The translations under genes and the position numbers were made by a program. Positions 1 to 33,883 of a stretch of 64,000 nucleotides of DNA are shown here, piece by piece. The DNA lies in NCBI GenBank assembly GCA_002733355.1, contig NVVN01000004.1, positions 1 to 64,000 of the forward strand, written 5' to 3'. The stretch is from Sulfurovum sp. (GTDB lineage: Bacteria; Campylobacterota; Campylobacteria; Campylobacterales; Sulfurovaceae). Position 1 is the stretch's first letter; each line of letters starts with the position of its first letter. Under the pieces are notes generated by a model. The model had not been told where the DNA came from and ran no database searches. It saw only the letters and a list, made by a program, of their open reading frames with translations.

Positions 1-462
<462 letters not shown>

Positions 463-655
463 TTATTCTTCTAATAGGTACTACCTTATTAAGTGCACAT
501 GCATATTAATTAAGAGAGAACTTCTTGTAAGATTGTAATTTACACAAAACAACATGAATCAACTCTAAATTGAACGTTTAGACTCTTAACAATACTAAGT
601 TTCTCAAAGCTTAATGCTTAGAGAGCTAATCACACATTGGTGTGCTTATCTCTCT

Positions 656-772
656 TAGTGGTGGGGTTAGAGGGAGGGTCATACCCAGCTCCATTCCGAA
701 CCTGGAAGTCAAGCCTCCCATCGCCGATAATACTGCAGGCTACGTCTGTGGAAATGTAGGTCGCTGCCACTT
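656..772 (+). rRNA. rrf: 5S rRNA
   Basis: About 117 nt with conserved CCATTCCGAAC..GAAGTCAAGC and GTAGGTCGCTGCCA; termini AGTGGTGG/CTGCCACT pair; about 190 nt downstream of 23S. Confidence 0.93.
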
Positions 773-1242
773 TGAGTTATACAACCCATACAATTTATTC
801 CCTTTCTTTATGCAACAATCAATCTATAATCTTGTTACCTTCAATTTAAAAATCTTTCTATCTTATCTCATATTTTTATTTACCATTATCTTTTACTCTT
901 TAACGCTACAGACGTATACGTATACTTTATGGTTAATCTATACTTAGGTTATATTAATATTCTATTGATACTTCTTTACTCTTTGTTAACTCTCATCCTT
1001 TATAATGGTATTAGAAAAGGTGACAGTTTTAGAACGTTGTTTTACTCCTTGTCCAAATTTAGTAAAAAAAACTTCCTTGTTTTTGTTCTGATTTTTCACC
1101 TTTTACAGAAGAGCCTCCCCCCCAATATCCCCCTAGATATTACTTCCTTGTTTTTTGGCTCTTCGATTTTCTTATAATTTTTAAAAACCTACTTAAACTA
1201 ACTTTACGATAAAATACTCCTAATAATCATTTAGGAACAACT

Positions 1243-2631
1243 ATGTCTAATAAAATAGCTTCGGCGCGTATCTCTGAAAAGAGTTCTCAACTGTTACAAA
1301 ATCTTAACAACTCATTGCCTTTTGATAAGGTGCTTTATAGAGAAGACATTGAAGGGTCGCGTGCACATGCGTTTATGCTTTGTGAGCAAGGTATCATAGG
1401 TAAAGACGACTACGCACAGATAGAGTCTGGTCTGGTTGAGATACTTGCAGAGATAGAGTCTGGAGAGTTTTTGCTAGATGGTGATGATGAAGACATTCAT
1501 ATGGCTATAGAAGGTAGATTAACGCAAAAGGTAGGTGATGCAGGTAAACGTCTGCATACTGCTAGAAGTCGTAATGACCAAGTAGCACTTGACTTTAGAC
1601 TCTACGTGCAGAGTAATACCAAAGCCATAGGTGAACTACTTTTAGAAAACATAGAGACACTTGTGACTGTGGCAGAAGAACATAGCGAAACAATGCTTCC
1701 TGGCATGACACACTTGCAACACGCACAGCCTATAAACTTCGGTTACCATATGTTAGCTTATGCGAGTATGTTTAAACGTGACTATGAGCGTTTTATGAGT
1801 TCTTATGAGCGTAATAACTACTCTCCTATAGGTTGTGCGGCATTGGCTGGTACACCACATAACATAAGCCGTCAAATCACTTCTGATAAGTTAGGTTTCA
1901 AAGCACCTACGCTTAACTGTCTAGACACAGTAAGTGACCGTGACTTTGCCTTGGAGATACTTTTTAACATAAGTACAATGATGATGCATATGAGTCGTTT
2001 GAGTGAAGAGCTCATCTTGTGGTCGGCAGCTGAGTTTAAGTGGGTGACACTCAGTGACCGTCATGCTACAGGTAGCTCCATNATGCCACAAAAGAAAAAC
2101 CCTGACATACCTGAATTACTACGTGGTAAAACAGGACGTGTGAATGGTAATCTAGTAGCACTTCTAACAGTGATGAAAGGTTTACCACTTGCCTACAACA
2201 AAGACATGCAAGAGGACAAAGAAGGAGTGTTTGACTCTGTTCGTACTGCGACACTGAGCTTGCAAGTACTAGAAGAGATGATAGCAGACATGACAGTAAA
2301 CAAAGATAAGATGGAAGCCTCATGTATGGTAGGACATTTGTCTGCTACAGACTTGGCTGACTATCTCGTAAAAGAGGCTGGACTTCCGTTTCGTGATGCC
2401 TATCACATTACTGGTGATGTTGTGAACTTAGCAGAAGAAAAAGGACTAGATATCTCTGAACTTAGCTTGGCTGACTTGCAGAGCATAGATGAGCGTATAG
2501 GTGAGGGTGTGGTCGCACTACTAGACAACCGTGCTTCGATGAATGCAAGGGTGTCTGAGGGTGGTACGGCTACTGTTAGGACTTTGGAGCAGGTTGAAGG
2601 GTTGAAGGGTTGGCTCCAATCTCAAAAGTAG
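1243..2631 (+). CDS. argH: argininosuccinate lyase
   Basis: [19 protein letters not shown], [12 protein letters not shown] fumarase/ASL signature, [17 protein letters not shown]. Confidence 0.98.
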
Positions 2632-2638
2632 GTATAAT
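2610..2638 (+). promoter_or_regulatory. putative sigma70 promoter overlapping argH stop (TTGGCT-N17-TATAAT)
   Basis: TTGGCT 2610-2615, TATAAT 2633-2638, then AAGGA RBS and GTG at 2660. Confidence 0.6.
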
Positions 2639-2659
2639 ATCTTAATTAAAGGATTTGTT

Positions 2660-2887
2660 GTGCCGACTTTGTTGAATTGTAATGGGTTTAAATTCTTTTT
2701 TTATGCGAATGAACATGAACCCATACACATCCATGTCATGAATAGTGATGGTTTTGCTAAAATAGAACTTGATGATTTAAGAGTTGTACAAAATTACATG
2801 AAACCAAAAGATTTAAANTTTGCATTNAAGATGACAAAAGAACACAAAGAAGAGTTTGAAAGGATATGGAATGAATGGTTTAATTAA
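2660..2887 (+). CDS. DUF4160-family small protein (putative toxin-antitoxin component)
   Basis: MPT...GFKFFFYANEHEPIHIHV...AKI...WNEWF pattern typical of DUF4160; overlaps next gene. Confidence 0.8.
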   Translation: MPTLLNCNGFKFFFYANEHEPIHIHVMNSDGFAKIELDDLRVVQNYMKPKDLXFAXKMTKEHKEEFERIWNEWFN

Positions 2888-3113
2888 GGGAAATGAAGTA
2901 CATTTTGATGATAAGTATTNACATGTAAAACTTGATGATGAAAGAATCATATCTACACCTATTTCTTGGTATAAGCCTTTAGAAAATGCTACATTGACTC
3001 AACTTAAAAACTATAGGTTTATCTGTATGGGTACTGGGATAGAGTGGGAAGAGTTGGATTATCATTTAAGTATAGAGAGTATGTTGTCTGTGTCTGAAGA
3101 GCAAGTAGCTTAA
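2871..3113 (+). CDS. DUF2442-family protein (partner of DUF4160)
   Basis: V.LDDERIIS.PISWY..L.NAT..QL.NY....GTGIEWEELDYHLSIE pattern; ATG at 2871 after AAGGA. Confidence 0.8.
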   Translation: MNGLIKGNEVHFDDKYXHVKLDDERIISTPISWYKPLENATLTQLKNYRFICMGTGIEWEELDYHLSIESMLSVSEEQVA

Positions 3114-3120
3114 TAATAAC

Positions 3121-3351
3121 GTGAAAAAAATAATTGTCATTCTTTTCTTCATAGTATTATCGGTTACAGTAGTATTTGCTAAGAAAAATGAATCAAAAAA
3201 GCCTACAAAATTCAAATGTGATAAAAGTAAATATTGTAAACACATGAGTTCTTGTGAAGAAGCAAAGTTTTTACTGAATCAGTGTGGAATGAAGAGACTT
3301 GATAGAGATAAAGATGGAGTGCCTTGTGAGAATATTTGTAGTGGTGGGTAA
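3121..3351 (+). CDS. secreted excalibur calcium-binding domain protein
   Basis: Signal peptide, then C..YCKHMSSCEEA...C....LDRDKDGVPCE (DxDxDGxxCE). Confidence 0.85.
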   Translation: MKKIIVILFFIVLSVTVVFAKKNESKKPTKFKCDKSKYCKHMSSCEEAKFLLNQCGMKRLDRDKDGVPCENICSGG

Positions 3352-3374
3352 AAGTAGCTTGTACCCATTATTTA

Positions 3375-3615
3375 CGTGATGCCTACCACATCACAGGGGG
3401 ACGCAGTTAACTTAGCTGAGCAAAAATGTTTAGACATCTCTGAACTTAGCTTGGCTGACTTGCAGAGTATAGATGAGCGTATAGGTGAGGGTGTGGTCGC
3501 ATTGCTTGATAACCGTGCTTCGATGAATGCAAGGGTGTCTGAGGGTGGTACGGCTACTGTTAGGACTTTGGAGCAGGTGGAGAGTTTGAAGGTTTGGCTA
3601 AGCAAACAAAACTAG
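3375..3615 (+). pseudogene. argH: duplicated argH 3' end (copy of 2392-2631, +1 frameshift near its 5' end)
   Basis: Direct alignment to 2392-2631; 3511-3578 is identical to 2527-2594; mostly synonymous differences in the first ~20 codons. Confidence 0.95.
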
Positions 3616-3622
3616 CTATAAT
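3594..3622 (+). promoter_or_regulatory. putative sigma70 promoter in second argH tail (TTGGCT-N17-TATAAT)
   Basis: TTGGCT 3594-3599, TATAAT 3617-3622, then AAGGAG RBS and GTG at 3643. Confidence 0.6.
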
Positions 3623-3642
3623 AAATGAAAAAAGGAGCATAG

Positions 3643-4062
3643 GTGTATTTGAGTCTTAAAGATAAACAATTAATCGTTACTACTTTAAAACAAGAGATAC
3701 CTATGCTTCAAGCACTTTACCTTTTTGGTAGTCAGAAAGATGGGAGCGCAACTGTTTCTAGTGATATTGACATTGCTTACCTTGCGACAAAGCCTTTAGC
3801 CAATGTAGAGCGTTGGGAGCTTTCTCAACAGTTGGCTTCTTTACTTTCGTGTGATATTGACCTTATAGAACTAACTCAAACCAATACTATTTTTAGATAT
3901 GAGATACTCTCGACAGCAGAACGTATATATGGAGAGGGCTATGAGGTAGAAAGTTTTGAGACTTTAGCATATAGTTTTTACCTACGTTTTAAAGAGGAAC
4001 GTAAGCCTATAGTGGATGCTATTATGAAAAACAAATCTGTTTTTGGGAAAATACATGCCTGA
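3643..4062 (+). CDS. mntA: minimal nucleotidyltransferase antitoxin (type VII TA, MntA family)
   Basis: LYLFGS-x10-DID motif (GSQKDGSATVSSDID); overlaps the HEPN gene. Confidence 0.88.
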   Translation: MYLSLKDKQLIVTTLKQEIPMLQALYLFGSQKDGSATVSSDIDIAYLATKPLANVERWELSQQLASLLSCDIDLIELTQTNTIFRYEILSTAERIYGEGYEVESFETLAYSFYLRFKEERKPIVDAIMKNKSVFGKIHA

Positions 4063-4474
4063 TGTGGTGTTAAATAAAATTCAGACTATTGAGAGATGTC
4101 TGAATCGTATACGAGAAGAGTACATAGGGTATGAAGAAAGTTTCGAAGAGAACTTTACAAAGCAAGATTCTGTCATACTGAACTTAGAACGTGCGTCACA
4201 AGCGACGATAGACATCGCAACACATATAGTAAAAACTAGAAGTCTAGGACTACCCAATACTAGCCGTGAACTTTTTGATTTTCTTTTAGATGCTAACATT
4301 ATAAGTAGTGAGACTTGTAAGCAGATGCAAGGGATGGTAGGTTTTAGAAATATAGCTGTGCATGATTATCAGAATTTGAATATTGAGATTGTTGTGGCAA
4401 TTGTGGAGAAACACCTTGGAGATTTTGAAAGGTTTATTCAAGAGATTTTTAGTGGGTATTTGGATGAAAAGTAG
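4055..4474 (+). CDS. hepT: HEPN RNase toxin (DUF86/HepT family)
   Basis: GFRNIAVHDY matches RX4HXY HEPN motif; QDSVILNLERASQATID; coupled to MNT gene. Confidence 0.88.
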   Translation: MPDVVLNKIQTIERCLNRIREEYIGYEESFEENFTKQDSVILNLERASQATIDIATHIVKTRSLGLPNTSRELFDFLLDANIISSETCKQMQGMVGFRNIAVHDYQNLNIEIVVAIVEKHLGDFERFIQEIFSGYLDEK

Positions 4475-4502
4475 CCTGTCCTCTTTTATTTCTTTTTTAT
4501 TG

Positions 4503-4544
4503 TTGGAGCAGATGGAGAGTTTGAAGGTTTGGTTGGGGAAATAA
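4503..4544 (+). repeat. third, short argH 3'-end remnant (LEQMESLKVWLGK*)
   Basis: 4503-4532 matches 3568-3597 at 29 of 30 nt and still ends in frame at a stop codon. Confidence 0.85.
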
Positions 4545-4560
4545 TAATTGAGTAATACTT

Positions 4561-5691
4561 ATGCCAAAAAATGAAAAAAAATTAAATGTATTTGTCGCAT
4601 CACCTTCTGATGTAATGGATGAACGTAACTTAATTAATGAAATATGTATTGAATTAAATAGAGTATGGGGTGACTGGTTAGGATTAAATCTAAATCTTAT
4701 TCGATGGGAAACTAATATNTATCCAGGAGTTTCTGAATATTCTCAAAATGTTATCAATGAGCAAATAAATGATGATTTTGACATATTTATTGCAATGTTT
4801 TGGAATAGATTTGGCACACAAACAAAAAAGTCCAAATCTGGCACCCTAGAAGAGTTGAATTTAGCTTTTAGTAAATTTAAAAATCAAAATGATTCCGTAG
4901 ATATAATGATTTATTTTAAAAAACAACTTTTAGAATATGAAGATAAAGTACAGCAAGAAAAAGTATTGGATTTAAAACATAATCTTTCAAAAGAAGGTAC
5001 TCTATATTGGGAGTTTCAAGAGACAAAAGATTTTGAATCATTAATGAGAATACATTTGAGTATGGTGGCTCAAAAATGGGCAAAAAAATATTTATCTGAT
5101 AATACAAACAAATCATATAAAGATATTTTACTAGATGATTTAAATTTAGAAGACTATTATAGTATTGTCTCATCACGTACAAAAGTTTTGCAAACACTTA
5201 CTTTGAATATAGCAACGATATATAAATTTAATATTGATGGAGCTAAATTATTTAGTAAACAAATAAAAAAACTTCTTAATGAAAAGAATATACTTATAAA
5301 ACAATTTAAGCTTTTACGAGTTACAAAGATATATTTAATGAATATGGAGGATACAGTAAATATTATCGATTCTCAAATTGCACCTATTTCTCATGCAAGG
5401 GGTGTATTGTTTGAGACACTAAGTAAAATTATATCTTTGGAAATAGGTTTGAAATTTAACGAAAGAATTACTACGCTTAAAAGCGTTATCAATAATTTAA
5501 ATAATGTACATATAGATGCAAGTAATAAAATGAAAGACACCATAAATAGTTTGAGTAATAATTCATATTTAAAAAATAATCTAACTAATCAAAAGATGAT
5601 TAGAGTTTTAGAAAAATATAAAAGCGAACTTGATAAATTTATAAATCTTTCAACTCCTTTATTGGAATTACTTAATGAATTGGAAAGCTGA
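4561..5691 (+). CDS. DUF4062-like (TIR/NDT-like fold) N-terminal domain with helical C-terminus; candidate defence protein
   Basis: VFVASPSDV..ER...RWE...PG....Q..IN......DIFI...W.RFGT.T....SGT.EE pattern; very AT-rich. Confidence 0.7.
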   Translation: MPKNEKKLNVFVASPSDVMDERNLINEICIELNRVWGDWLGLNLNLIRWETNXYPGVSEYSQNVINEQINDDFDIFIAMFWNRFGTQTKKSKSGTLEELNLAFSKFKNQNDSVDIMIYFKKQLLEYEDKVQQEKVLDLKHNLSKEGTLYWEFQETKDFESLMRIHLSMVAQKWAKKYLSDNTNKSYKDILLDDLNLEDYYSIVSSRTKVLQTLTLNIATIYKFNIDGAKLFSKQIKKLLNEKNILIKQFKLLRVTKIYLMNMEDTVNIIDSQIAPISHARGVLFETLSKIISLEIGLKFNERITTLKSVINNLNNVHIDASNKMKDTINSLSNNSYLKNNLTNQKMIRVLEKYKSELDKFINLSTPLLELLNELES

Positions 5692-5702
5692 TGTATTTTA
5701 GA

Positions 5703-5736
5703 TTGTTCCAAGGTTATAAAATGTGGGAATGCATAC
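5703..5736 (-). repeat. degenerate palindromic REP-like element (GTATGCATTCCCAC...GGAACAA)
   Basis: Imperfect hairpin TTCC(A)..GTGGGAA with ATGCATAC tail; resembles, from recall, the GTATGCATTCCCACGC..GCGTGGGAAC REP family. Confidence 0.4.
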
Positions 5737-5787
5737 GTCAATTTAAACTTTAAATATAATTTCAATTTTTTTCAATATTCAATATTA

Positions 5788-5813
5788 AAGGTGCGTTGGC
5801 AAACGCACCCTAC
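5788..5813 (-). repeat. GTAG-family REP 1
   Basis: Minus strand GTAG GGTGCGTT TGCC AACGCACC TT: GTAG tetranucleotide plus palindrome. Confidence 0.88.
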
Positions 5814-5854
5814 GGGGTTGGTATTTTTTTCAATTTGTTTTTTTGAATAAGCTT

Positions 5855-5882
5855 GTAGGGTGCTGTTTGCTAGCGCACCTTT
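5855..5882 (+). repeat. GTAG-family REP 2 (degenerate)
   Basis: GTAGGGTGCTGTTTGCTAGCGCACCTTT. Confidence 0.82.
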
Positions 5883-5974
5883 AACTCACAACTACCGATA
5901 GATCTGAACACAAAATAAAAATGACAATGTGCCATATTTTCACTTCTCATTTAAATTCTACGCTACACTTCAAA

Positions 5975-6421
5975 ATGGCAAAATACAAAAGACTCTTTTT
6001 GGCTGAACACAGCTATTACATTACTGTGGCTACACACAAACGACAGCCACTACTTGTAGATAACATTGAACTACTCCGAGAAAGCTTTCGTGAAAGTAAA
6101 CGGTATTTTACTTATAGCATAGATGCCATTGTAGTCATGCCTGACCATATACATATGATAATTACCCCTAAAGATGTGATGGATTACCCTAAAATCATTA
6201 GAGCTATAAAATATAACTTCTCACGACATTTTCATCTAGAAGAAGAACAATCATACAGTAGGTATAAACGAAAAATAAAACCTATTTGGCAGAAGCGATA
6301 CTATGAGCATACGATACGTAATGAGAACGATTATGTACGATGTTTGGAATATATGCAAAATAATCTGCTAAAACATGGCTATGTAGATAATGGCGAAGTA
6401 TGGGAATACATGTCTCTGTAG
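5975..6421 (+). mobile_element. rayT: REP-associated tyrosine transposase (RAYT, Y1 HUH family)
   Basis: YYITV, VVMPDHIHMI (HUH), IWQKRYYEHTIRNE.DY....EY...N...HG (catalytic Tyr); flanked by four GTAG REPs; start taken at ATG 5975. Confidence 0.92.
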
Positions 6422-6511
6422 GGTGCGGTTGCCACAGCACCTTTAAATTCAATATGCAATAGAATCTTTTTTTCATCCAAATATTAAGGTGCGGTGGCAA
6501 CCGCACCCTAC
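6418..6511. repeat. REPIN-like doublet: REP 3 (+, 6418-6444) and REP 4 (-, 6486-6511)
   Basis: GTAGGGTGCGGTTGCCACAGCACCTT ... AAGGTGCGGTGGCAACCGCACCCTAC as an inverted pair; the RAYT stop TAG lies inside the GTAG of REP 3. Confidence 0.88.
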
Positions 6512-6607
6512 GAGATATTACGTTAAGCAACAGTGATATTAAAGACTTCATAAGTATTTATTGATATAGTAATATTATTAGAAAAAATGATGAGAGAGGT
6601 ATGTAGT

Positions 6608-7174
6608 ATGGCAGGTGGAGAAAATAGACGTATAATGGAAATGCAATTTGAGGCNATGAAAGATGAGCATGGAGTTAAAAAAGATGATGATGCTCCTAAA
6701 AAACCTAAACCGAGTAACCATAGAAGTGAAAACAGTCGAAAAATCGCAGCATTGTATGAAGATGCAGCTGAGTATGAAGAAGAGCTAGAGGCTTTTGAAA
6801 AAGAGCTTGAAATCATTAATGAAAATCAACTCTCAGATNNTTTGGATGCCTTGGTTAAAAGTACGCCAGAGTATGATGGCGATTATGCTGTGGAATTAAG
6901 GGCTGTACTAGAAGCTGGTTGGACACAGAAGGTTGATGTAGATAAAACCCATCCCAAAGAAGAGTTAGAACTTATTAAAAAATCAGCATTTAATGATGTA
7001 ATTGAAAAGCTTAATGAAGAAGATGTCAGAGATACCTTGGTGAAAAGATGGGAAATGCTTGTGGCTATAAAAAAAGAGCACGTGGCTGATGAACGTGCAG
7101 AGATGAAGCTACGTGGTATGAAGCCAGACCATATACGTAAAGTATATAGAAACTACCATGGACTTGATGACTAG
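6608..7174 (+). CDS. hypothetical acidic helical protein
   Basis: Long ORF with host-like codon usage and GAGAGG RBS before ATG 6608. Confidence 0.75.
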   Translation: MAGGENRRIMEMQFEXMKDEHGVKKDDDAPKKPKPSNHRSENSRKIAALYEDAAEYEEELEAFEKELEIINENQLSDXLDALVKSTPEYDGDYAVELRAVLEAGWTQKVDVDKTHPKEELELIKKSAFNDVIEKLNEEDVRDTLVKRWEMLVAIKKEHVADERAEMKLRGMKPDHIRKVYRNYHGLDD

Positions 7175-7184
7175 GTATCTCCTA

Positions 7185-8626
7185 CTACGAAGAGCATGAG
7201 AGAGTGAGATTTTTGTACTCTTCTGGTGTGTCACCTGCAAAATGTTCGAACTCTGGAAGTTCGTCAAAAGGGTGTGTGGCTATGTGTAGTAAGGTTTCTA
7301 CCATCGTAAAGTTTCCTTGTCTTGCAAGGAAGGTTGCTTTTTCAAGCATATAGTTTTTTAAAACATACTTTGGGTTGATCTTTAGAAGAGCATCTTGACG
7401 CTGGGTTTGGGTACGCGTTTCCTTTGATAAGCGAGCATCATACAGATTGAGCCATTTGTCTATGGGTACTGGATTCATGGCAAGTTCAAGGAGAGGCATT
7501 CTTTCACCGTCATAACGACTTAGTGTTCGAAAGAAAAGCGTATAGTCCACATAAGCGTCTTGTAGTGTACCTACTAGATTTGAGATAAGTGTCATGTCTT
7601 CATTTAGCTCCAAAGTCAATCCAAGTTTTTGACGCATGACATCTATGTATGCATTAGGATAAATGAAATCTCCATAATCATCAAGTTTTTTTTGCATTTT
7701 CTCTTCGTCGATAAGAGGAGAAAGTGCCTTAGAAAGCATAGTAAGGTTCCAGTAGGAAATGTTGGGCTGTTCACCATAGGCGTATCGTCCAGCTTTATCT
7801 GTTGCATTACATACAAAGCCGTAATCAAAATCATCCAACATAGAAAAAGGACCATAATCTATGGTGAGACCTGCTATAGACATATTGTCAGTATTCATCA
7901 CTCCGTGGCAAAACCCTAGACCTTGCCACTTGGAAATAAGCTGTGCTGTGCGTTCANTANCNNCNNNNAAAANCNCANNNNNNCGNNTCNTCNCNATNNN
8001 GNANNTNNNGGNAANNNCTCANNNANNNNNTANTCGNCAANTGACTTTAGTTTATCAAACTCTTTAAGGTAATAAAAGTATTCGAATGTACCAAAACGCA
8101 CCCATGAGGGTGACATACGCATGACGATTGCTCCACGTTCTATGTTGTTTCGTAATAGTTTTGTTTGTGAACCTATGATGCCAAGAGCACGTGTGCTAGG
8201 AACGCCCAGATGGTGCATGGCTTCGCTCATGAGATACTCTCTTATGGAAGAGGGTAGCGCGGCACGACCATCTGCAGTACGTGAATAAAGTGTTTCACCA
8301 CTCCCTTTAGTCTGTAAGTGCCAGCTATTAATACTTCCTAGATTGTGTGCTCTACCATCTCCTAGACGTGGGGCGTAATGGCTGAACTGATGTCCAGCAT
8401 AGCACATAGAAAAAGGACGCACCCCTTTAGGTAAAAAGGTGCCGTTAAGCAGGTCTATAAAACGAGGGTCATCTCCGCTGTTGTCATCAAGGTCGATGAG
8501 TTTTGCTGTCTTGGGGTTAAAGCTTATCAGGTATGGCTCATCAAGAGGTTCAGGCTCTGTCATATCATAAAATTCGCTATCTAGCGAAAGATATTTGCTT
8601 TGAAATTGTAGGTTATCAAGTGTCAT
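7185..8626 (-). CDS. selO: protein adenylyltransferase SelO (YdiU); reading frame broken in an N-rich stretch
   Basis: YAGHQF, LGDGRA, KGSG.T.YSR..DGRA, REYLMSEAM, GFCHGVMNTDNMSI, DYGPF, C-terminal SCSS; frame change falls in Ns at about 7958-8041. Confidence 0.9.
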
Positions 8627-8772
8627 AGAGATGTTTTACATGTTTTATGCTTAAGTTCAGATAATCATTGACTTCTTCAATGTTTTTTTCTTTAGCAATT
8701 TTTCGTATATATTCTCACCCAAGAGGGTAAACTAAAAGACTCATCTTTATTTTGAAAATGTACCTCATTACG

Positions 8773-9363
8773 TTATAGTACTAAAATTTCTTCCAAACTC
8801 CTATACCCACTTATGTAGACCATTTGTCCATCTTCATTTACTTTGACTATTGAAGGAAATGCGTTGACTCCCATGGATCGGGCTTTGGTAAAATCGTNTT
8901 GCATGAGGANTTCAGCTCGGTCACTTTGGTAAAAGTGGGTGAANGCTTNCTTNTCTTGCCTGATGTANNTNGTCAGNATTTCCAAGGAAGTAATGTCTAC
9001 NCCTTGGGCATAAAAGGCAGACTGGATGTCGCAGAGGTAAGTAAAGGCAGCATCTATTCCCCAGAGTTCACGTACCGTGACAATGGCTTTACAGGAAGGG
9101 TAGGTGTTGTAGTCGAAATGGGCAAGGTTTAGAAGTCTTAGATTAAACGGTTGGCTGGTAGCCTGCTGAACGGCATTCCAGTTTTGTTTGAGGTAGGCTT
9201 TGCTTTCATCATTCCACGGCATTTGTCCTGAAGTACGCAGACCACCTACTACCAAGCCAAATGTATAATGTTCACTATAGTTTACACGGAGCTTTTCTAT
9301 GACAGGGTGAAAACCCCAGCACCATGAGCACATAGGGTCTATAACAAAGATGAGTTGGGACAT
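8773..9363 (-). CDS. DsbA-family thioredoxin-fold protein
   Basis: DPMCSWCWGF (CxxC) and GVNAFPS (cis-Pro loop). Confidence 0.88.
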   Translation of the reverse strand: MSQLIFVIDPMCSWCWGFHPVIEKLRVNYSEHYTFGLVVGGLRTSGQMPWNDESKAYLKQNWNAVQQATSQPFNLRLLNLAHFDYNTYPSCKAIVTVRELWGIDAAFTYLCDIQSAFYAQXVDITSLEXLXXYIRQXKXXFTHFYQSDRAEXLMQXDFTKARSMGVNAFPSIVKVNEDGQMVYISGYRSLEEILVL

Positions 9364-9436
9364 AGCTTACCTTTAAATAATACAAATAGTATAACATATG
9401 AAGTTTGATAGAAGTAGACTTTATATACTATGGGCA

Positions 9437-10531
9437 TTAGAGTTTAGGTTTTATCTTTTTGTAGACCTTTCTAGCGGTAGCTCTNAAAGAAGTAAGTTTT
9501 CCTCCATAGATACTGTAAACATTTGCTGCGTTTGTTTTGTCATGCCAAATTTGCACTTCTCTGGACTTTGTGAAGGCATCTTTGTTGTTGCTAGGCAGCA
9601 CACGTAGTCCTGCAAAAGAGTCGATGATATTTTNNNNNGNNNNNNNNNNNNNNNNNNANNNNTNGNNGTTNNNNNNNANNNNNNTGNNNNNNNNNNNNNN
9701 GNNNTNTNTNTGTTTNAANNNNNGNNNNNNNNNNANNTNNNNANTNCCAATGAGTGTGCCATTGTGGTAAGGGCGTACGAAGATGGCTCTTTTATCTCTT
9801 GCTTCTATATAGTAAATGCGGTCTACTTTTGTGTCTATTAAAATGTGTGAACCAAGGACTAAGTCTATGTCTAGAGTGTTTGGCTTTGTAGTGCATGTGT
9901 TAAGTACTTCATTGACCCAAGGTCCTGCTGCGTTGATGACTACTTTTGAGGTGACTTGCTGTGTCGTACCGTCTTTCTCGTAGCTTACAATACAGTGTGT
10001 TTTAGAGTCTTCTATTTTTTCTACTGTTGCATTAAACTTTGTTATACAACCAGACTGTTCTAATACATGAGTGGTGAGTAGTTTATCATCGGTGACGCCG
10101 TCTTTGTACTCGTAGACTTTAAGAAGGTCTTTTGTCTCAATGTCTAAACTATGCCATTCATTTTTTGGTACAGAGGAGAATTTTTTCCATGAGAACAGAG
10201 CGTAAATACTTAGTCCCATAAAGACCATCCAGGGTTTTCTTTTACTGTGGGTGTAGAGAGGGAGGTAAAAGGATTTGAGTTTTACGAGTTGTGGCAAATG
10301 TTTGACGAGGTAAGCTCTTTCTTCCAGTGACTCTTTCACAAGTCCAAATTCGAAGTTTTCCAAGTAGCGTAAGCCACCATGTATGAGCTTGGATGATTTG
10401 CTTGATGTACCACAAGCTGGCTGGGAAAACTGTTCTAAGACAATACATGTATACCCCTTAGTAGAGAGGAGTTCTGCTACGCCTGCACCCGCAATGCCTG
10501 CTCCGATGATAGTCACGTCGTATGTTTGCAT
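9437..10531 (-). CDS. FAD-dependent oxidoreductase, glycerol-3-phosphate dehydrogenase (GlpD)-like, short form
   Basis: IIGAGIAG, GTSSKSSKLIHGGLRYLE, VINAAGPW, FAGLRVL, GGKLT. Confidence 0.8.
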   Translation of the reverse strand: MQTYDVTIIGAGIAGAGVAELLSTKGYTCIVLEQFSQPACGTSSKSSKLIHGGLRYLENFEFGLVKESLEERAYLVKHLPQLVKLKSFYLPLYTHSKRKPWMVFMGLSIYALFSWKKFSSVPKNEWHSLDIETKDLLKVYEYKDGVTDDKLLTTHVLEQSGCITKFNATVEKIEDSKTHCIVSYEKDGTTQQVTSKVVINAAGPWVNEVLNTCTTKPNTLDIDLVLGSHILIDTKVDRIYYIEARDKRAIFVRPYHNGTLIXXXXXXXXXXXKXXXXXXXXXXXXXXNXXXXXXXXXXXXNIIDSFAGLRVLPSNNKDAFTKSREVQIWHDKTNAANVYSIYGGKLTSXRATARKVYKKIKPKL

Positions 10532-10625
10532 GGTTGTCTTTCTTAGTATGGGTTTGTCTTTGAACTATTATACCCTATGATATAATGATATGAAAATTTT
10601 AAATGAGTGAGGAAACTTAGAAAAT

Positions 10626-11900
10626 ATGTTTATGGATAAAATNAAATCANTGTATATAAAATTAATACCGTCTAAAACTGTGGGCAAGGAAAATAATAAA
10701 AATAAAGTCGGGAAATGGGTTCTGTTTCTTATAATTGCCTTGGATATTTTTGTTTTTAATGTCGTCATTAAAGGCATAGAGTCTCAGACCAATATGTTTG
10801 TGAATGCAAATGTAAAGTACCCTTATGCATGTACATCATTAATACGTATGCATGATGGAAATAATCCCTATACGTATAGATATAAGAAAGGAACATATTA
10901 CACAGACCATAGCGNGATGAATGCCAATAAACATTATAATAATGAACTTGATAAAGTAAGGCAAACATATATAGACAACCGTTGCGTAGAGACATTTAGA
11001 CTTTTTAATCAGGCCAGTGATGATGTTNATGTGAAAAAGAGTATCAAAACCTTGCGTGCATTAAATAAGAGTGAAAATAGAAAACGTTCAGATATACGTA
11101 ATCTTGAAAATCAATACGATACGATGTTGTTTGAGAAGATAGCTGGGCAAGATAAAAGTTTGTCTATACGCAATGAAGACAAAATAGATGCACAAAGCGT
11201 AAAAGAGAAGTACAATGTTCTGCTGAAAGAAAAAAGTGATTTGGAGAGTAGAATCAATACTTTACATGGGACGTTTTCCAACATATCTACTATAGAAATA
11301 TTTTTAAAGTATGTAGAAGAGAATAGAGAAACAATTCTTACTGATTATAAGAAAGAACAATCGTGGGGCACAGCAAAGTCAAGCATCGTCGCTTTTTTAC
11401 TTGCATTACCATTGTTGATTATTTTCTATCTGTTACTTTCTAGAAGTCTGAGAGATAATAATCATATAAAGTATTTGATCTATAAAAACTTGTATGTGGT
11501 GATGTTGATCATTGCTTTAGGGTATCTGTCTGTCATTATATATAGTGTGATGCCCAAAACATTTATCGCTTCGCTTATAGGGTTTTTTGCCCAAATACAG
11601 TTGCCTATTATCGTGTATTATCTGTTGGTGGCGTTAGCAGTGTTTATCTTTAGTTGGATAATTGTAAAAATTTATAAAAGAGGAGAGGGAAAACGACTAC
11701 GACATACAGATGTAACGTATTATAGAAAATCACTTTGTTCTCATTGTGAAGAGTGCGTAAATTACGAGACGATGAACTTTTGTCCCTCTTGTAAATATAC
11801 ACTCAAAAGAGAATGTACAGATTGTGGAAATAAGACTTTAGCGATGTTTAAATATTGTACAACATGTGCCAAGTCAGAGCATGAAACAGATAGAGTATAA
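10626..11900 (+). CDS. membrane protein with extracytoplasmic coiled-coil region and C-terminal double zinc ribbon
   Basis: One N-terminal and three C-terminal hydrophobic segments; CSHC, CPSC, CTDC, CTTC. Confidence 0.75.
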   Translation: MFMDKXKSXYIKLIPSKTVGKENNKNKVGKWVLFLIIALDIFVFNVVIKGIESQTNMFVNANVKYPYACTSLIRMHDGNNPYTYRYKKGTYYTDHSXMNANKHYNNELDKVRQTYIDNRCVETFRLFNQASDDVXVKKSIKTLRALNKSENRKRSDIRNLENQYDTMLFEKIAGQDKSLSIRNEDKIDAQSVKEKYNVLLKEKSDLESRINTLHGTFSNISTIEIFLKYVEENRETILTDYKKEQSWGTAKSSIVAFLLALPLLIIFYLLLSRSLRDNNHIKYLIYKNLYVVMLIIALGYLSVIIYSVMPKTFIASLIGFFAQIQLPIIVYYLLVALAVFIFSWIIVKIYKRGEGKRLRHTDVTYYRKSLCSHCEECVNYETMNFCPSCKYTLKRECTDCGNKTLAMFKYCTTCAKSEHETDRV

Positions 11901-11920
11901 AAAATAAAATAGGAGATAAG

Positions 11921-12385
11921 ATGAATGTATCGGTAGAGTATCTAGGAGACAAGAAATTTAAGGCAAATACACTGAAGTCTTCTTATGTGATAAACTGTAA
12001 AGAGATAACACCTGTGGAGTATTTTGCAACTGCAATCATAGGATGTACGGGTATTGACCTTGTGATGATGGCTGAGAATGATGGTTATGTAGTAAGTANC
12101 TATACAGTAAGTGCAGAGATAGAAAGAACAATGGATGTNCCTATGAAACTTAGTACTATGCACATCATTTATGCGTTTGATGGAGCCTTTGATGCGGTTA
12201 AAGCAAAACGTTACATTCTGGCTTCTTTGGAGAGTTACTGTACAACGGTGAACTCTGTGCGTGATTCTGTGAAAATAACGTATACTATCATACATAACGG
12301 GGTGAATATAGCTNANAATGAGAGTATAGTCTCAGGTGGAGGAACTGTTCTTGAAGATGGGTTTGGTGGCGCGTGTGGCGCATAA
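11921..12385 (+). CDS. OsmC-family protein
   Basis: TPVEYF...IIGCTGID and SLESYCTTVNS conserved Cys pair. Confidence 0.8.
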   Translation: MNVSVEYLGDKKFKANTLKSSYVINCKEITPVEYFATAIIGCTGIDLVMMAENDGYVVSXYTVSAEIERTMDXPMKLSTMHIIYAFDGAFDAVKAKRYILASLESYCTTVNSVRDSVKITYTIIHNGVNIAXNESIVSGGGTVLEDGFGGACGA

Positions 12386-31501: not shown

Positions 31502-32062
31502 ATGGCAAGTGTATTATTACCTATAGCAGAAGGATTTGAAGAGCTTGAAGCAGTAGCATTGATTGATGTGATGCGTCGTGGTGGAATCGAGGTTCGTGTA
31601 GTGTATCTTGAAGATGAAACACATGGCGCGTTGGTCACAGGTGCCAATGGCATTACTGTGCAGGCTGATATGTCTATTAAGAATATTATTTCCGAAGACT
31701 TTGATATGATGGTACTTCCTGGAGGTTGGGATGGCACCTATGCTTTAGCAGAAAATGAAAGAGTTATAGAACTTGTACAAGAGTTTAAAGAAAAGAAAAT
31801 AATAGGTGCGATGTGTGCGGCACCATTTGTGTTGAAAAAAGCAGGAGTTCTAGGTAATGATTATACATGTTACCCCGGAGCCAAGGAGGAGATAGACCAT
31901 CCAGGCTACAGAGCAGATGCAAAAGTAGTGACAGACGGTAATGTCATCACCTCACAAGGACCAGGTACAGCAGTATGTTTTGGTCTAGTTATAGTAGAAC
32001 GTCTGGTAGGAGTGGAATCCATGCAGGCTGTAAAAGATGGGATGCTTTTAGACTATTGTTGA
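31502..32062 (+). CDS. DJ-1/PfpI (YajL/ThiJ-like) family protein
   Basis: GFEELEA, LPGG, AMCAAP nucleophilic Cys, TSQGPGT. Confidence 0.92.
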   Translation: MASVLLPIAEGFEELEAVALIDVMRRGGIEVRVVYLEDETHGALVTGANGITVQADMSIKNIISEDFDMMVLPGGWDGTYALAENERVIELVQEFKEKKIIGAMCAAPFVLKKAGVLGNDYTCYPGAKEEIDHPGYRADAKVVTDGNVITSQGPGTAVCFGLVIVERLVGVESMQAVKDGMLLDYC

Positions 32063-32134: not shown

Positions 32135-33883
32135 ATGAAAAGTCATTTTACCCATTTTGGAGAATTGTACCGTTTTTTAGAAAGTCAGCCTTCTAAAGAA
32201 GAGTTTTTACACCATCGTACGAAGCATACATATAAAAACTTTTCAAAAGATACATTTCTTACTACAGTCAAATACCTTGCTTTGTCTTTTCACCAAAAAG
32301 GATGGGAAGGTAAACAGATTGCTATAGCTGTTTCACCTTCTCCTTATTGGCTCATGATTGACTATGCACTGATGATAGCTGGTGCTGTTTCTGTTCCTCT
32401 TTTTACAAACATATCTTCTAAAAATTTACATTTTCAAATCTTGGATGCGTCTATTCACACAGCTTTTATAGAAAATAAAGAGCAAGAAGAGATTATCCAT
32501 AAGGCAGAAGAAAGCGTGGAGACTATCTATCTTTTAGAACATGTCTCTGGGCATCATTCTTGTGATGACTATGTTAAAGAGGGAAAAAAGATACACAAAG
32601 AGGACAATGCTTTGTTCGACACACTTATAGCGCGTATAAAAGCTGAAGATTTGGCGACTATTGTTTACACATCTGGTACATCTGGTACTCCTAAAGGGGT
32701 AGAGTTAACACATCAAAATCTTATCTCTCAGATACACGCTACAGCTCAGAATTATCATTTCGATAGACAGACAGATATTGCTTTTTCTTTTTTACCTTTG
32801 GCACATATTTTTGAACGTATGGTCATGCACTTTTATCTTTCACAGGAATTGACAGTTTATTTTGCAGATGATGTGCAAAATGTTGGCGTACTTTTAAAAG
32901 AGGTAAATCCAACAGTGATGACTGTGGTACCAAGACTTTTAGAAAAAGTATTTTTCAAGATGAAACTCAAAGCAATGCAAGGGAGTATCATTAAAAAAGC
33001 CTTGGTCTCTCTAGCCTTTTACAGAGCAACGACGAAAAATCCGTATGCTAAGTTGAATTTTGTAGATAAGATGTTAGATAAGCTGGTATATACAAAACTT
33101 CGTGTGGCTTTAGGCGCAAGAATGCGTATGATGATTTCTGGGGGTGCGGCACTTTCAGATATGTTATATAAATTTTACATGAACATAGGGATTCCCCTCT
33201 ATCAAGGCTATGGACTCACAGAATCCAGCCCAGTCATATGTTCCAACACTCCCCAAGCAAATAAAATAGGCACATGTGGAAAAGCTTTTCCTGGTGTTGA
33301 AGTAAAGATAAGTGAGGAAGGGGAACTGCTTGCACGTGGTGCAAATATCATGCTGGGGTATCATAACAATGAAGTGGTGACAGCTGAAACGATAGACAAC
33401 GAAGGGTGGCTATATACTGGTGATTTAGCAAAGATAGACGATGAAGGGTTTATTACCATAACTGGGCGTAAAAAAGAACTTTTTAAAACATCTACAGGTA
33501 AATATGTCTCTTCTGTGCACATAGAGCAAAAGCTTGTGAGTAATGGGTGGTTTGAACATGCACTTATTGTAGGTAATGCTAGACCTTTTGTTGTGGCACT
33601 TCTTTTTGTTGAGCCTGGTTTTTTAGAACATATGGCTANTAAATTGAATATGTCTCCCAATGAAGCATTAGATTCACTAAAGCTTAGAAAAATGAGTGAA
33701 AAATTTATTAAAGTATTAAATAATAAGTTGAACCATTGGGAGAAGATACGNGCATTTAAACTGCTTGAAAATACACTAAGTATAGAAAATGGTGAACTAA
33801 CACCTTCTATGAAACTGGCAAAAAAACATTTGATGGAACATTATGAGAATGAGATAGAAGAGATGTATAAGGGGCACATATGA
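32135..33883 (+). CDS. fadD: long-chain fatty acid-CoA ligase (AMP-dependent; FadD/RpfB-like activity)
   Basis: YTSGTSGTPKG, FLPLAHIFER, QGYGLTE, GWLYTGD, GRKKE. Confidence 0.88.
   Translation: MKSHFTHFGELYRFLESQPSKEEFLHHRTKHTYKNFSKDTFLTTVKYLALSFHQKGWEGKQIAIAVSPSPYWLMIDYALMIAGAVSVPLFTNISSKNLHFQILDASIHTAFIENKEQEEIIHKAEESVETIYLLEHVSGHHSCDDYVKEGKKIHKEDNALFDTLIARIKAEDLATIVYTSGTSGTPKGVELTHQNLISQIHATAQNYHFDRQTDIAFSFLPLAHIFERMVMHFYLSQELTVYFADDVQNVGVLLKEVNPTVMTVVPRLLEKVFFKMKLKAMQGSIIKKALVSLAFYRATTKNPYAKLNFVDKMLDKLVYTKLRVALGARMRMMISGGAALSDMLYKFYMNIGIPLYQGYGLTESSPVICSNTPQANKIGTCGKAFPGVEVKISEEGELLARGANIMLGYHNNEVVTAETIDNEGWLYTGDLAKIDDEGFITITGRKKELFKTSTGKYVSSVHIEQKLVSNGWFEHALIVGNARPFVVALLFVEPGFLEHMAXKLNMSPNEALDSLKLRKMSEKFIKVLNNKLNHWEKIXAFKLLENTLSIENGELTPSMKLAKKHLMEHYENEIEEMYKGHI

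Follow-up and report, generated by a model that had tools for sequence, protein, structure and literature searches.

Behind the argininosuccinate lyase gene argH, a Sulfurovum genome recovered from a metagenome carries an array of small toxin-antitoxin (TA) and candidate defence genes in which the 3' end of argH is found again and again. The window, by which we mean the whole stretch of 64,000 nucleotides (nt) that was analyzed, lies on the 172-kb contig C11 of a metagenome bin that comprises 22 contigs with 3% contamination and a genome of 1.94 Mb. We consider it probable that the stretch behind argH is a recombinase-free hotspot for TA and defence genes, and that the extra argH tails are the long target duplications of two successive insertions. 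This reading builds on observations made directly on the DNA, namely the anatomy of the array, an empty site in relatives, the lack of a nearby recombinase gene, the recurrence of such duplications at other genes and the allele-like divergence of the tail copies. As the agent we infer RecA-type recombination, which could have acted through two crossovers of a repeat-armed unit, through a circle that entered by one crossover or through copying of donor DNA at a break.

Anatomy of the array and divergence of the tail copies

The array begins at argH itself. This gene is intact (1243-2631; features lie on the forward strand unless stated otherwise) and forms the left core flank of the hotspot. 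Its open reading frame (ORF) of 462 amino acids (aa) matches Lyase_1 (E = 9.7e-67) and ASL_C2 (E = 1.2e-23) and is 78-95% identical at the amino-acid level to its matches in the same genus. As had been described in the original prediction, the end of argH occurs three times in direct orientation: in the intact gene up to 2631, at 3372-3623 and at 4503-4544. Copy 1 (2389-2639) consists of the last 243 nt of argH and 8 nt past the stop codon; the repeat extends by these 8 nt beyond the stop and takes in a TATAAT box, the putative -10 element. Copy 2 (3372-3623) is a displaced argH tail of 251 nt, likewise with the -10 box, that still gives an ASL_C2 match (E = 4.8e-6). Compared with the argH end it was 86.2% identical over 254 nt in a gapped blastn alignment (2389-2639 versus 3372-3623), 89% over 203 nt without gaps (2413-2615 versus 3397-3599) and 93.5% over 169 nt in a whole-genome search. 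The alignment of copies 1 and 2 also bore out the fully identical core of 68 nt (2527-2594 = 3511-3578) that had been noticed earlier. A 1-nt insertion near 3396 introduces a frameshift into copy 2. Copy 3 (4503-4544) is an eroded argH-tail remnant of 42 nt with 86% identity to 3568-3609. Its best 30 nt reach 96.7% identity (E = 2e-8 against the whole 1.94-Mb genome), and it was matched by the tails of 46 out of 85 query sequences. The whole-genome search revealed no further argH-tail copy in the 1.94 Mb.

A domain scan confirmed that a different cargo stands behind each of these copies. Cargo 1 comprises a DUF4160 gene (2660-2887, Pfam E = 3.9e-17), a DUF2442 gene (2856-3113, Pfam E = 2.5e-13) and a gene for a small secreted Excalibur-domain protein (3121-3351, Pfam E = 6.1e-10). 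Cargo 2 comprises genes for an MntA-type nucleotidyltransferase (3643-4062, Polbeta E = 5.1e-16) and for HepT (4043-4474, HepT-like E = 1.9e-30), which adjoin with an overlap of 20 nt and whose Polbeta/NTP_transf_2 and HepT-like matches lie above the cut-offs. By gene content 3643-4474 is an MntA-HepT toxin-antitoxin pair, for which toxicity and neutralization are predicted; GSX10DXD and Rx4H, which we take to be the motifs of the two proteins, are visible in the translations. Compared with other MntA-HepT (type VII) pairs these proteins are ordinary, and what is unusual is their setting behind gene ends. Cassettes with 65-86% amino-acid identity to this pair stand behind argH in five species loci and on 15 metagenome contigs. 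Cargo 3 is a single 376-aa gene (4561-5691), the N-terminal 180 residues of which correspond to positions 5-185 of the 906-position PADLOC profile for the candidate defence family PDC-S60 (E = 1.5e-44), while its DUF4062 match in Pfam remains below threshold (21.6 versus a cut-off of 24.7 bits). The GC content amounts to 30.6% in cargo 1, 25.2% in the cargo 3 gene and 42.8% in argH. Between the tail copies, the inserts measure 732 nt (cargo 1) and approximately 880 nt (cargo 2).

The second tail had been claimed to differ from argH mainly at synonymous positions, and indeed we counted 17 synonymous versus 6 non-synonymous codon differences between copies 1 and 2. For a dead copy that decays beside a live one, far more non-synonymous change is expected. 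The synonymous bias therefore suggests that most of the divergence arose while both copies belonged to working genes in different lineages. The divergence is not uniform along the copies. Their first 58 nt differ in an allele-like manner, each with closer relatives elsewhere (88-91%), and their middle 148 nt are 95.9% identical to each other and at most 91.2% identical to 162 other alleles. The last ~37 nt together with the leader track the cargo: those of copy 2 are similar to tails in front of MntA, and those of copy 1 to the tail of locus L119, where DUF4160 is likewise present. In the live argH, the final 37 nt are associated with the DUF4160 cargo and are unusual for the clade. The end of copy 2 is typical for the clade, and in 19 of the 20 closest relatives it is nearer than the copy 1 end. 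Judged by these alignments, the replacement gene end is apparently supplied together with the cargo. The original view of the second tail as a foreign, formerly functional allele holds in so far as the copy behaves like a functional allele (17 versus 6), and fails in so far as the copy is not simply foreign, since its 95.9% identical middle makes it a mosaic. What the copies appear to record is recombination between homologous tails of different strains, and not a fixed site-specific core. Such a mosaic might arise by several routes. A donor unit of tail, cargo and tail with two near-identical tails could recombine by crossovers in the resident tail and in the donor's second tail; a circle could enter by a single crossover that is followed by long-heteroduplex repair; or donor DNA could be copied at a break and subsequently be altered by conversion.

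The tail ends also contain promoter-like sites. One TTGGCT-17-TATAAT site lies across the argH stop codon (2610-2638) and a second one in front of MntA (3594-3622), both with 10 of 12 consensus matches, and a weaker one (9 of 12) is found at the end of copy 3 (4521-4548). The -35 box of the tail-end sites sits in Trp-Leu codons of argH. Since the total of promoter-like sites in 2300-7300 is not above chance, the argument rests on position and conservation. The ends of copies 1 and 2 are two of the four top-scoring (10/12) sites in the scan of this region. Furthermore, TAG followed by (G/C)TATAATA is found behind argH in relatives with forward-strand cargo, mostly MntA, and was not found at empty sites; a loose TAG-TATAATA pattern matches 23 of 163 loci. 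The same TATAAT motif precedes MntA in relatives. The duplicated tail piece would accordingly carry a putative promoter that would drive the gene behind it.

The argH-SelO site in relatives and duplications at other genes

On its right side the hotspot is bounded by a convergent SelO gene. We compared the DNA behind argH from all genomes of the genus with a match, which yielded 82 loci that hold the argH stop codon, 74 of them informative (at least 1 kb downstream). SelO follows 19-68 nt after the argH stop in 5 of the 74 loci (L033, L035, L058, L063, and L066), which we regard as the empty site, and 448-4734 nt behind argH in 19 more; other genes follow in the rest. Directly behind argH we found FRG (PDC-S15), GIY-YIG/DUF4357 (PDC-S14), ApeA, AbiJ-like (PDC-S32), SIR2-STAND (ThsA-like SIR2) and DUF2971 (PDC-S31) genes, as well as genes for a CapP-like peptidase, a PIN_8 protein, a RelA/SpoT-domain protein and MntA-HepT. 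Judging from these family matches, the cargo behind argH is largely defence-like. In the annotated record of Sulfurovum mangrovi, hypothetical genes and a DUF262 gene come next after argH. The expectation that the cargo would differ between relatives was hence borne out, with gene content variable and not fixed across the informative loci. In many relatives the contig starts just upstream of argH, which then lies 200-500 nt from the contig start, and in L058, L063, L075, L091, and L097 argH is split over two to four frames, owing to frameshifts or assembly consensus errors. In a limited literature search we came across no published account of this locus, nor of Sulfurovum TA cassettes that show duplications of this type.

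When all tails were searched against the DNA of the species loci, 5 of the 74 informative ones, the window not counted, had an extra argH tail. The tails that had been predicted for relatives are present, yet they are uncommon, and four of the five share the remnant behind MntA-HepT (G018, G077, G116, and G112). In the fifth, G041, an FRG gene is followed by a remnant of ~60 nt with TTATAAT and then by DUF7946/7947. Among 80 sampled metagenome contigs, 64 were informative and 5 had an extra tail, in all cases behind MntA; one of these five represents the same DNA as the G018 locus. MntA-HepT itself stands behind argH in five species loci, with a fragment in a sixth, and on 15 of the 80 metagenome contigs. 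The remnants behind HepT co-align, with lengths of ~150, 100, 100 and 42 nt in the set of G116, G112, G018, G077 and the window. They look like one original of ~150 nt, whose erosion would have left three genomes with ~100 nt and the window with 42 nt. The order argH, MntA-HepT, remnant, without cargo 1, is found in G018, G077 and G116 and on contigs L120, L121, and L169. These relatives without the first cassette, together with the stronger erosion of the outer remnant, support the claim that older tails are pushed outward with the newest next to argH. The tails do mark off cargo that was acquired separately.

The remnant-bearing cassette is found in argH lineages that are unrelated to one another, and its neighbours differ. 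Five genomes have five different genes behind the remnant, coding for a PDC-S60-like protein, a 181-aa ORF, an AbiJ-like protein, a beta-helix protein and SIR2-STAND. A quick tree was built from the argH body of 73 loci, without its last 260 nt. On it, the distribution of the six carriers requires six changes (five or more if only well-supported branches count), which is no fewer than the mean of 5.8 obtained with shuffled labels. As argH alleles may recombine, we read this tree as showing that the carriers are apparently scattered, and not as a count of events.

Members of the same MntA-HepT subfamily also occur elsewhere, namely in the nadA-nadC interval of L232, behind the tRNA U5-methyltransferase gene of L231 and in a Nitratifractor genome. 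At these other places, as in the nadA-nadC interval (L232, 1562-4251), the pair keeps the TATAAT leader known from argH but lacks a long duplication. L237 (2480-5610), from another Sulfurovum genome, displays a nested arrangement: a piece of a HepT end comes first, then 31 nt left over from argH and a putative promoter, then MntA-HepT, a gene with a SEC-C motif and another MntA-HepT with an internal deletion. Two repeats connect the MntA-HepT copies, one of 117 nt at 95% and one of 133 nt at 91% identity, and these nested copies indicate that the cassette can itself be the duplicated target. The gene argH was not found in the 85%-complete assembly of L237.

A comparison of the genome with itself revealed a further case on contig C3 (G000:C3:5853-7089), where a ParE-like TA pair is preceded by a duplicate of the first 226 nt of an FAD oxidoreductase gene (87% identity) and followed by the gene itself. 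The order is glyS, a 98-aa oxidoreductase-head fragment, a small ORF, an antitoxin-sized ORF, the ParE-like toxin gene and the intact oxidoreductase gene. The two heads differ at 20 codons synonymously and at 8 non-synonymously. In 29 loci of relatives, glyS and the oxidoreductase gene abut in 14 (empty site), 7 have other fillings and in 8 glyS is out of reach. The C3 case and L237 together indicate that the duplication process is not specific to argH. This speaks against the proposal that the argH tail serves as a dedicated attachment site: the duplication boundaries vary (-241, ~-150 and ~-60 nt), and the same anatomy recurs at a gene head and at a TA cassette. On contig C2 (G000:C2:54799-56787), AraC-family and glyoxalase genes are enclosed by two copies of a 99-nt sequence (82% identity) from the end of a gene for an ogt-type methyltransferase, and this repeat may be a further long target duplication.

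Mobility genes, rival explanations and known systems

The original prediction had noted that no integrase or attC site is visible; for the integrase, this was borne out by a profile search of C11 and a scan of neighbouring ORFs. None of the six tyrosine recombinase genes (PF00589) of the genome falls on C11, all six lying on other contigs, and a serine recombinase (PF00239) was not matched anywhere in the genome. A Pfam scan of all ORFs in 2660-5691 found no mobility gene in or beside the inserts. To cover the site in relatives, 456 ORFs located up to 7 kb behind argH in the 82 species loci were grouped into 208 clusters, of which 133 were scanned (the 75 others being singletons below 90 aa). 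These 133 representatives included no integrase, no resolvase and no transposase other than Y1_Tnp. The inverted-repeat search of 1-12000, in which an attC covariance model was not applied, listed no attC-like local arm pairs in 2392-4560, and its sole local hairpins were REP pairs at 5785-6511. We also searched for a possible carrier. A comparison of the tail protein and HepT with viral contigs gave no tail-bearing relative and only two HepT matches of 33% identity; the DNA of tail 1 with cargo 1 had no match in phage records; and the DNA of tail 2 with MntA-HepT had no plasmid matches other than DUF86 genes of the Bacillus group, which are distant, and an intact argH on a 395-kb replicon of Sulfurovum mangrovi. 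A phage or plasmid as carrier was therefore rejected, as no tail-plus-cargo unit was found on viral, phage or plasmid records.

We propose that the MntA-HepT cassette arrived first and left the tail of which 42 nt now remain. The DUF4160-DUF2442-Excalibur cassette would then have entered between argH and the MntA-HepT cassette and displaced the 251-nt tail. As each tail copy ends in a promoter-like site that straddles the stop codon, the gene behind it would stay expressed. A unit of tail, cargo and tail has homology on both sides, so that host homologous recombination could move it to any relative that bears argH, irrespective of the downstream genes and most likely after DNA uptake, and stacking would become possible.

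Several findings weigh against this reading. Only three independent duplication events are seen at argH among the 74 and 64 informative loci, despite the diverse cargo, and most cargo exchange either leaves no tail or the tails are quickly lost. L119 and L130 hold DUF4160-DUF2442 between argH and MntA without Excalibur and without the middle tail. Compared with the window, both lack exactly 3114-3617 (504 nt), and a degenerate TAG-plus-leader copy is left behind their DUF2442 stop; either a later deletion took place, or DUF4160-DUF2442 entered by another route with a very short duplication. In consequence, one tail per cassette is not valid everywhere. Around MntA-HepT in L232 and L234 we found no target duplication of at least 25 nt. 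To see which copy is native, we compared both with the relatives closest in the argH body; for the 5' 58 nt, copy 2 is the nearer of the two in just 5 of 20 such relatives. The recombinase genes on other contigs may act in trans. ComEC and DprA are present in the genome and carry no weight, because the same families match most control genomes.

The original prediction, taken literally, has circles with one tail each enter by a single (Campbell-type) crossover and leave by tail-tail recombination, so that an integron-like stockpile builds up. Its picture of an integrase-free, ordered and recombination-based array agrees with our data, while argH-specific attachment and one tail per cassette do not. 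Tail, cargo and tail with the newest unit next to argH is the topology expected from a single crossover, both flanks of the copies differ as hybrids of donor and recipient would, and the same life cycle has been proposed for restriction-modification (R-M) units (Furuta et al., 2010; PMC2853133). From a single crossover one would expect just one point of switching, however, and not a middle of 148 nt in which the copies are mutually nearest, unless a long heteroduplex was repaired. Moreover, the middle tail is missing from L119 and L130, no tail-plus-cargo unit was found on phage or plasmid records, and release and re-entry lack experimental evidence according to the same authors (Furuta et al., 2010; PMC2853133). 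The joints of a circle would equal those of the array, so that public contigs cannot tell them apart. All in all, we regard one-tail circles as unlikely. A functional gene end that adjoins the cargo with the displaced end on the far side would equally be expected if the tails were attL/attR-type scars of site-specific elements that target the argH 3' end, with the integrase lost or acting in trans; the 42-nt remnant starts inside the 68-nt identical core (2584 versus 2527-2594), and six tyrosine recombinase genes exist elsewhere in the genome. Several results make such scars quite improbable. No integrase was detected behind argH in the 82 species loci (133 representative ORFs) or on C11, the inserts are only 0.7-0.9 kb long, and the duplication boundaries differ between events (-241, ~-150, ~-60). 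A gene head and a TA cassette are also bracketed, which leaves no common target sequence, and erosion of a longer remnant explains the short start of the 42-nt one.

The duplications could also have arisen in place, by replication slippage or unequal sister exchange, independently of cargo entry and with later allelic recombination. The middle 148 nt of the copies share variants that are missing from 162 other alleles, and the argH alleles of the genus are mosaic, with none closer than ~90% to that of the window in any segment, which would suit such a local origin. Yet every duplication found brackets foreign AT-rich cargo exactly, each copy's end is linked to its own cargo in other genomes, and the synonymous bias (17 of 23 at argH, 20 of 28 at the oxidoreductase gene) is unlike decay in place, so that duplication in place appears very improbable to us. 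That the assembly joined the argH loci of several strains into a chimera has to be considered for a metagenome bin (22 contigs, 3% contamination), all the more as the contigs of public runs, which we compared over the N-free region 2922-4718, break at the repeats and no single one spans the whole array. In run X1, however, a 901-nt contig corresponds to 2565-3465 and thus leads from copy 1 through cargo 1 into copy 2 at a depth of 37.2, compared with 32.7 for the MntA-HepT contig; the middle unitig has a depth of 48.1, which fits a sequence that is partly present twice. Run X3 from another study gave depths of ~10 versus 11.7 for cargo 1 and MntA-HepT. In run X6, from a third study, a contig spans the joint from Excalibur to the tail without the 1-nt insertion near 3396, and hence an in-frame version of the displaced tail exists in nature. 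The joint between Excalibur and the tail at -241, spanned in X1 and X6 and thereby in two studies, is impossible to obtain by mixing two plain argH loci. Furthermore, the depths of cargo 1 and MntA-HepT agree in two samples, and independent assemblies of other species show argH, cargo and remnant on contigs of 123 kb and 465 kb. A chimera is thus extremely improbable. In X3 the stretch 3222-3401 is uncovered, and in X7 joints with skips of 157 nt and 249 nt were seen, with sides of 32-33 nt.

Integrons stack small cassettes, TA cassettes included, in a promoter-proximal position at one site by means of IntI, attC and attI. The array behind argH likewise stacks small cassettes at one site, among them TA cassettes. 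In contrast to integrons, it has no IntI match, its repeats are pieces of a housekeeping gene with variable length, and each unit has a putative promoter of its own. The array is not an integron, and integron-like is an analogy only. The protein gene icd receives a new 3' end from the integrative elements phage 21 and e14, and fda from ICESt1 and its decayed CIME relatives. There, too, the new gene end differs mainly at synonymous sites, the old end is displaced and tandem accretion is possible. Those elements rely on a tyrosine integrase and a fixed crossover core, whereas at argH the boundaries vary and no integrase was found.

The closest likeness is to insertion with long target duplication, which Nobusato and colleagues reportedly described for R-M gene units in 2000 (Gene 259:99). 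In both cases a small selfish or defence unit devoid of mobility genes stands between direct repeats, tens to hundreds of bases long, for which the empty site has one copy only. The repeats often lie at a gene end, and epsilon-proteobacteria are among the published hosts. Helicobacter pylori was followed by Campylobacter, Neisseria, Haemophilus and others as hosts of such R-M insertions. Furuta, Abe and Kobayashi (2010, NAR 38:2428; PMC2853133) report R-M inserts that lack mobility genes and have flanking repeats 45-420 bp long; most come from species with natural competence, among them Helicobacter and Campylobacter. They hypothesized insertion, repeat-mediated amplification and release, and called this untested themselves. 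Their screen asked for repeats above 30 bp that align to one empty-site copy, and the argH repeats (251 and 42 nt) do so, with a single tail beside SelO in five loci. It asked for an insert below 20 kb and a repeat unique in the genome, and here the inserts measure 732 and ~880 nt and the repeat has no dispersed copies. It also asked for both R and M genes in the insert, whereas the cargo here is of TA/defence type. Unlike the published cases, the argH array carries TA pairs and single-gene defence candidates, with two events nested at one gene end. Its copies are 86% identical with a synonymous bias, compared with 90-100% in most published pairs, the duplicated piece carries a putative promoter, and the remnant-bearing cassette occurs across several species with different neighbours.

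A second point of comparison are the loci cDHS1/2 of Pseudomonas aeruginosa, which are flanked by core genes and hold changing defence systems without marks of mobile elements (Johnson et al., 2023; PMC10250203). For these, transfer via homologous recombination in the conserved flanks was proposed, and how they are filled was called an open question in the same account. The argH-SelO site similarly is a fixed interval between two core genes with changing defence content and no obvious mobile element. The cDHS loci have a median size of 26 kb, and no duplicated flank is described in the relevant passages; behind argH the interval measures 0-5 kb, and some duplicated gene ends record the order of arrival.

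Gain of genes without a dedicated enzyme and with target duplication is already known; of interest here are the stacking, the TA/defence cargo, the allele-like copies, the putative promoter and a site that is variable across the genus. The finding extends insertion with long target duplication from R-M genes to TA and other defence genes, and from host-associated Helicobacter/Campylobacter to free-living Sulfurovum of marine and subsurface metagenomes. The scars would provide the arrival order, point to strain-to-strain recombination rather than decay in place, and place a promoter in the duplicated piece. That duplicated gene ends serve as portable homology arms is a testable proposal. We can only tentatively suggest, and hold it to be rather doubtful, that displaced gene ends are working parts of a recombinase-free cassette system in this sense and that this is a general route by which TA and defence genes pass between species in Campylobacterota. 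If true, it would explain how integrase-free defence hotspots are built.

RAYT, flanking features and further repeats

At its distal end the array is followed by a RAYT gene (Y1 transposase-like, 5921-6421, Y1_Tnp E = 1.2e-12) with REP hairpins around it, visible as inverted repeats at 5785-5813, 5865-5884, 6418-6449, and 6480-6511. RAYT homologues with 45-81% identity stand behind argH in five species loci and on 13 metagenome contigs. RAYT with REP was seen in L052, L053, L055, L062, L068, L115, L117, L125, L127-L129, L137, L142, L146, L151, L160, L168, and L172. RAYT is hence a frequent resident of the argH-SelO interval that is not linked to the tails. It was rejected as the mover of the cassettes, as it lies outside both bracketed units; to our knowledge, Y1 enzymes make no long duplications.

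Between RAYT and SelO lies the gene orf195 (6587-7174), which codes for an acidic protein without a Pfam family that is conserved between argH and SelO in many relatives; homologues with 43-91% identity are found in L041, L046, L049, L073, L075, and L082, among others. The SelO gene (7185-8626, reverse strand) gave matches with E = 3.3e-48 and 1.4e-57, and its reading frame is broken by masked N only. Masked N runs (7950-8060) and scattered single N interrupt SelO and several cargo ORFs. On the left, the context of argH in the window is the end of an rRNA operon (1-772), with the 3' end of the 23S gene at 1-464 (Rfam LSU_rRNA_bacteria, 524.9 bits) and the 5S gene at 657-772 (5S_rRNA, 70 bits).

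The comparison of the genome with itself also brought up repeats of other kinds. A repeat pair on contig C9 was considered as a target duplication and rejected, since it represents the variable and the template repeat of a diversity-generating retroelement. In this element (G000:C9:30128-33582), bAvd and a reverse transcriptase gene come after a target gene that encodes KAP NTPase and FGE-sulfatase domains, and the two repeats of 114 nt (31783-31896 and 33437-33550) are 90% identical, which fits variable and template repeats. On contig C1 (G000:C1:8178-13749), an RHH/ParE pair and a second gene of the SelO family are found next to a gene for a tyrosine recombinase (8178-8780); 82 nt of that SelO-family gene are repeated at a distance of 3 kb. 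On C11 itself, beyond the window, a direct repeat of 791 nt with 98.5% identity is located at 96660-97449 and 102681-103471, with the two copies 6 kb apart.

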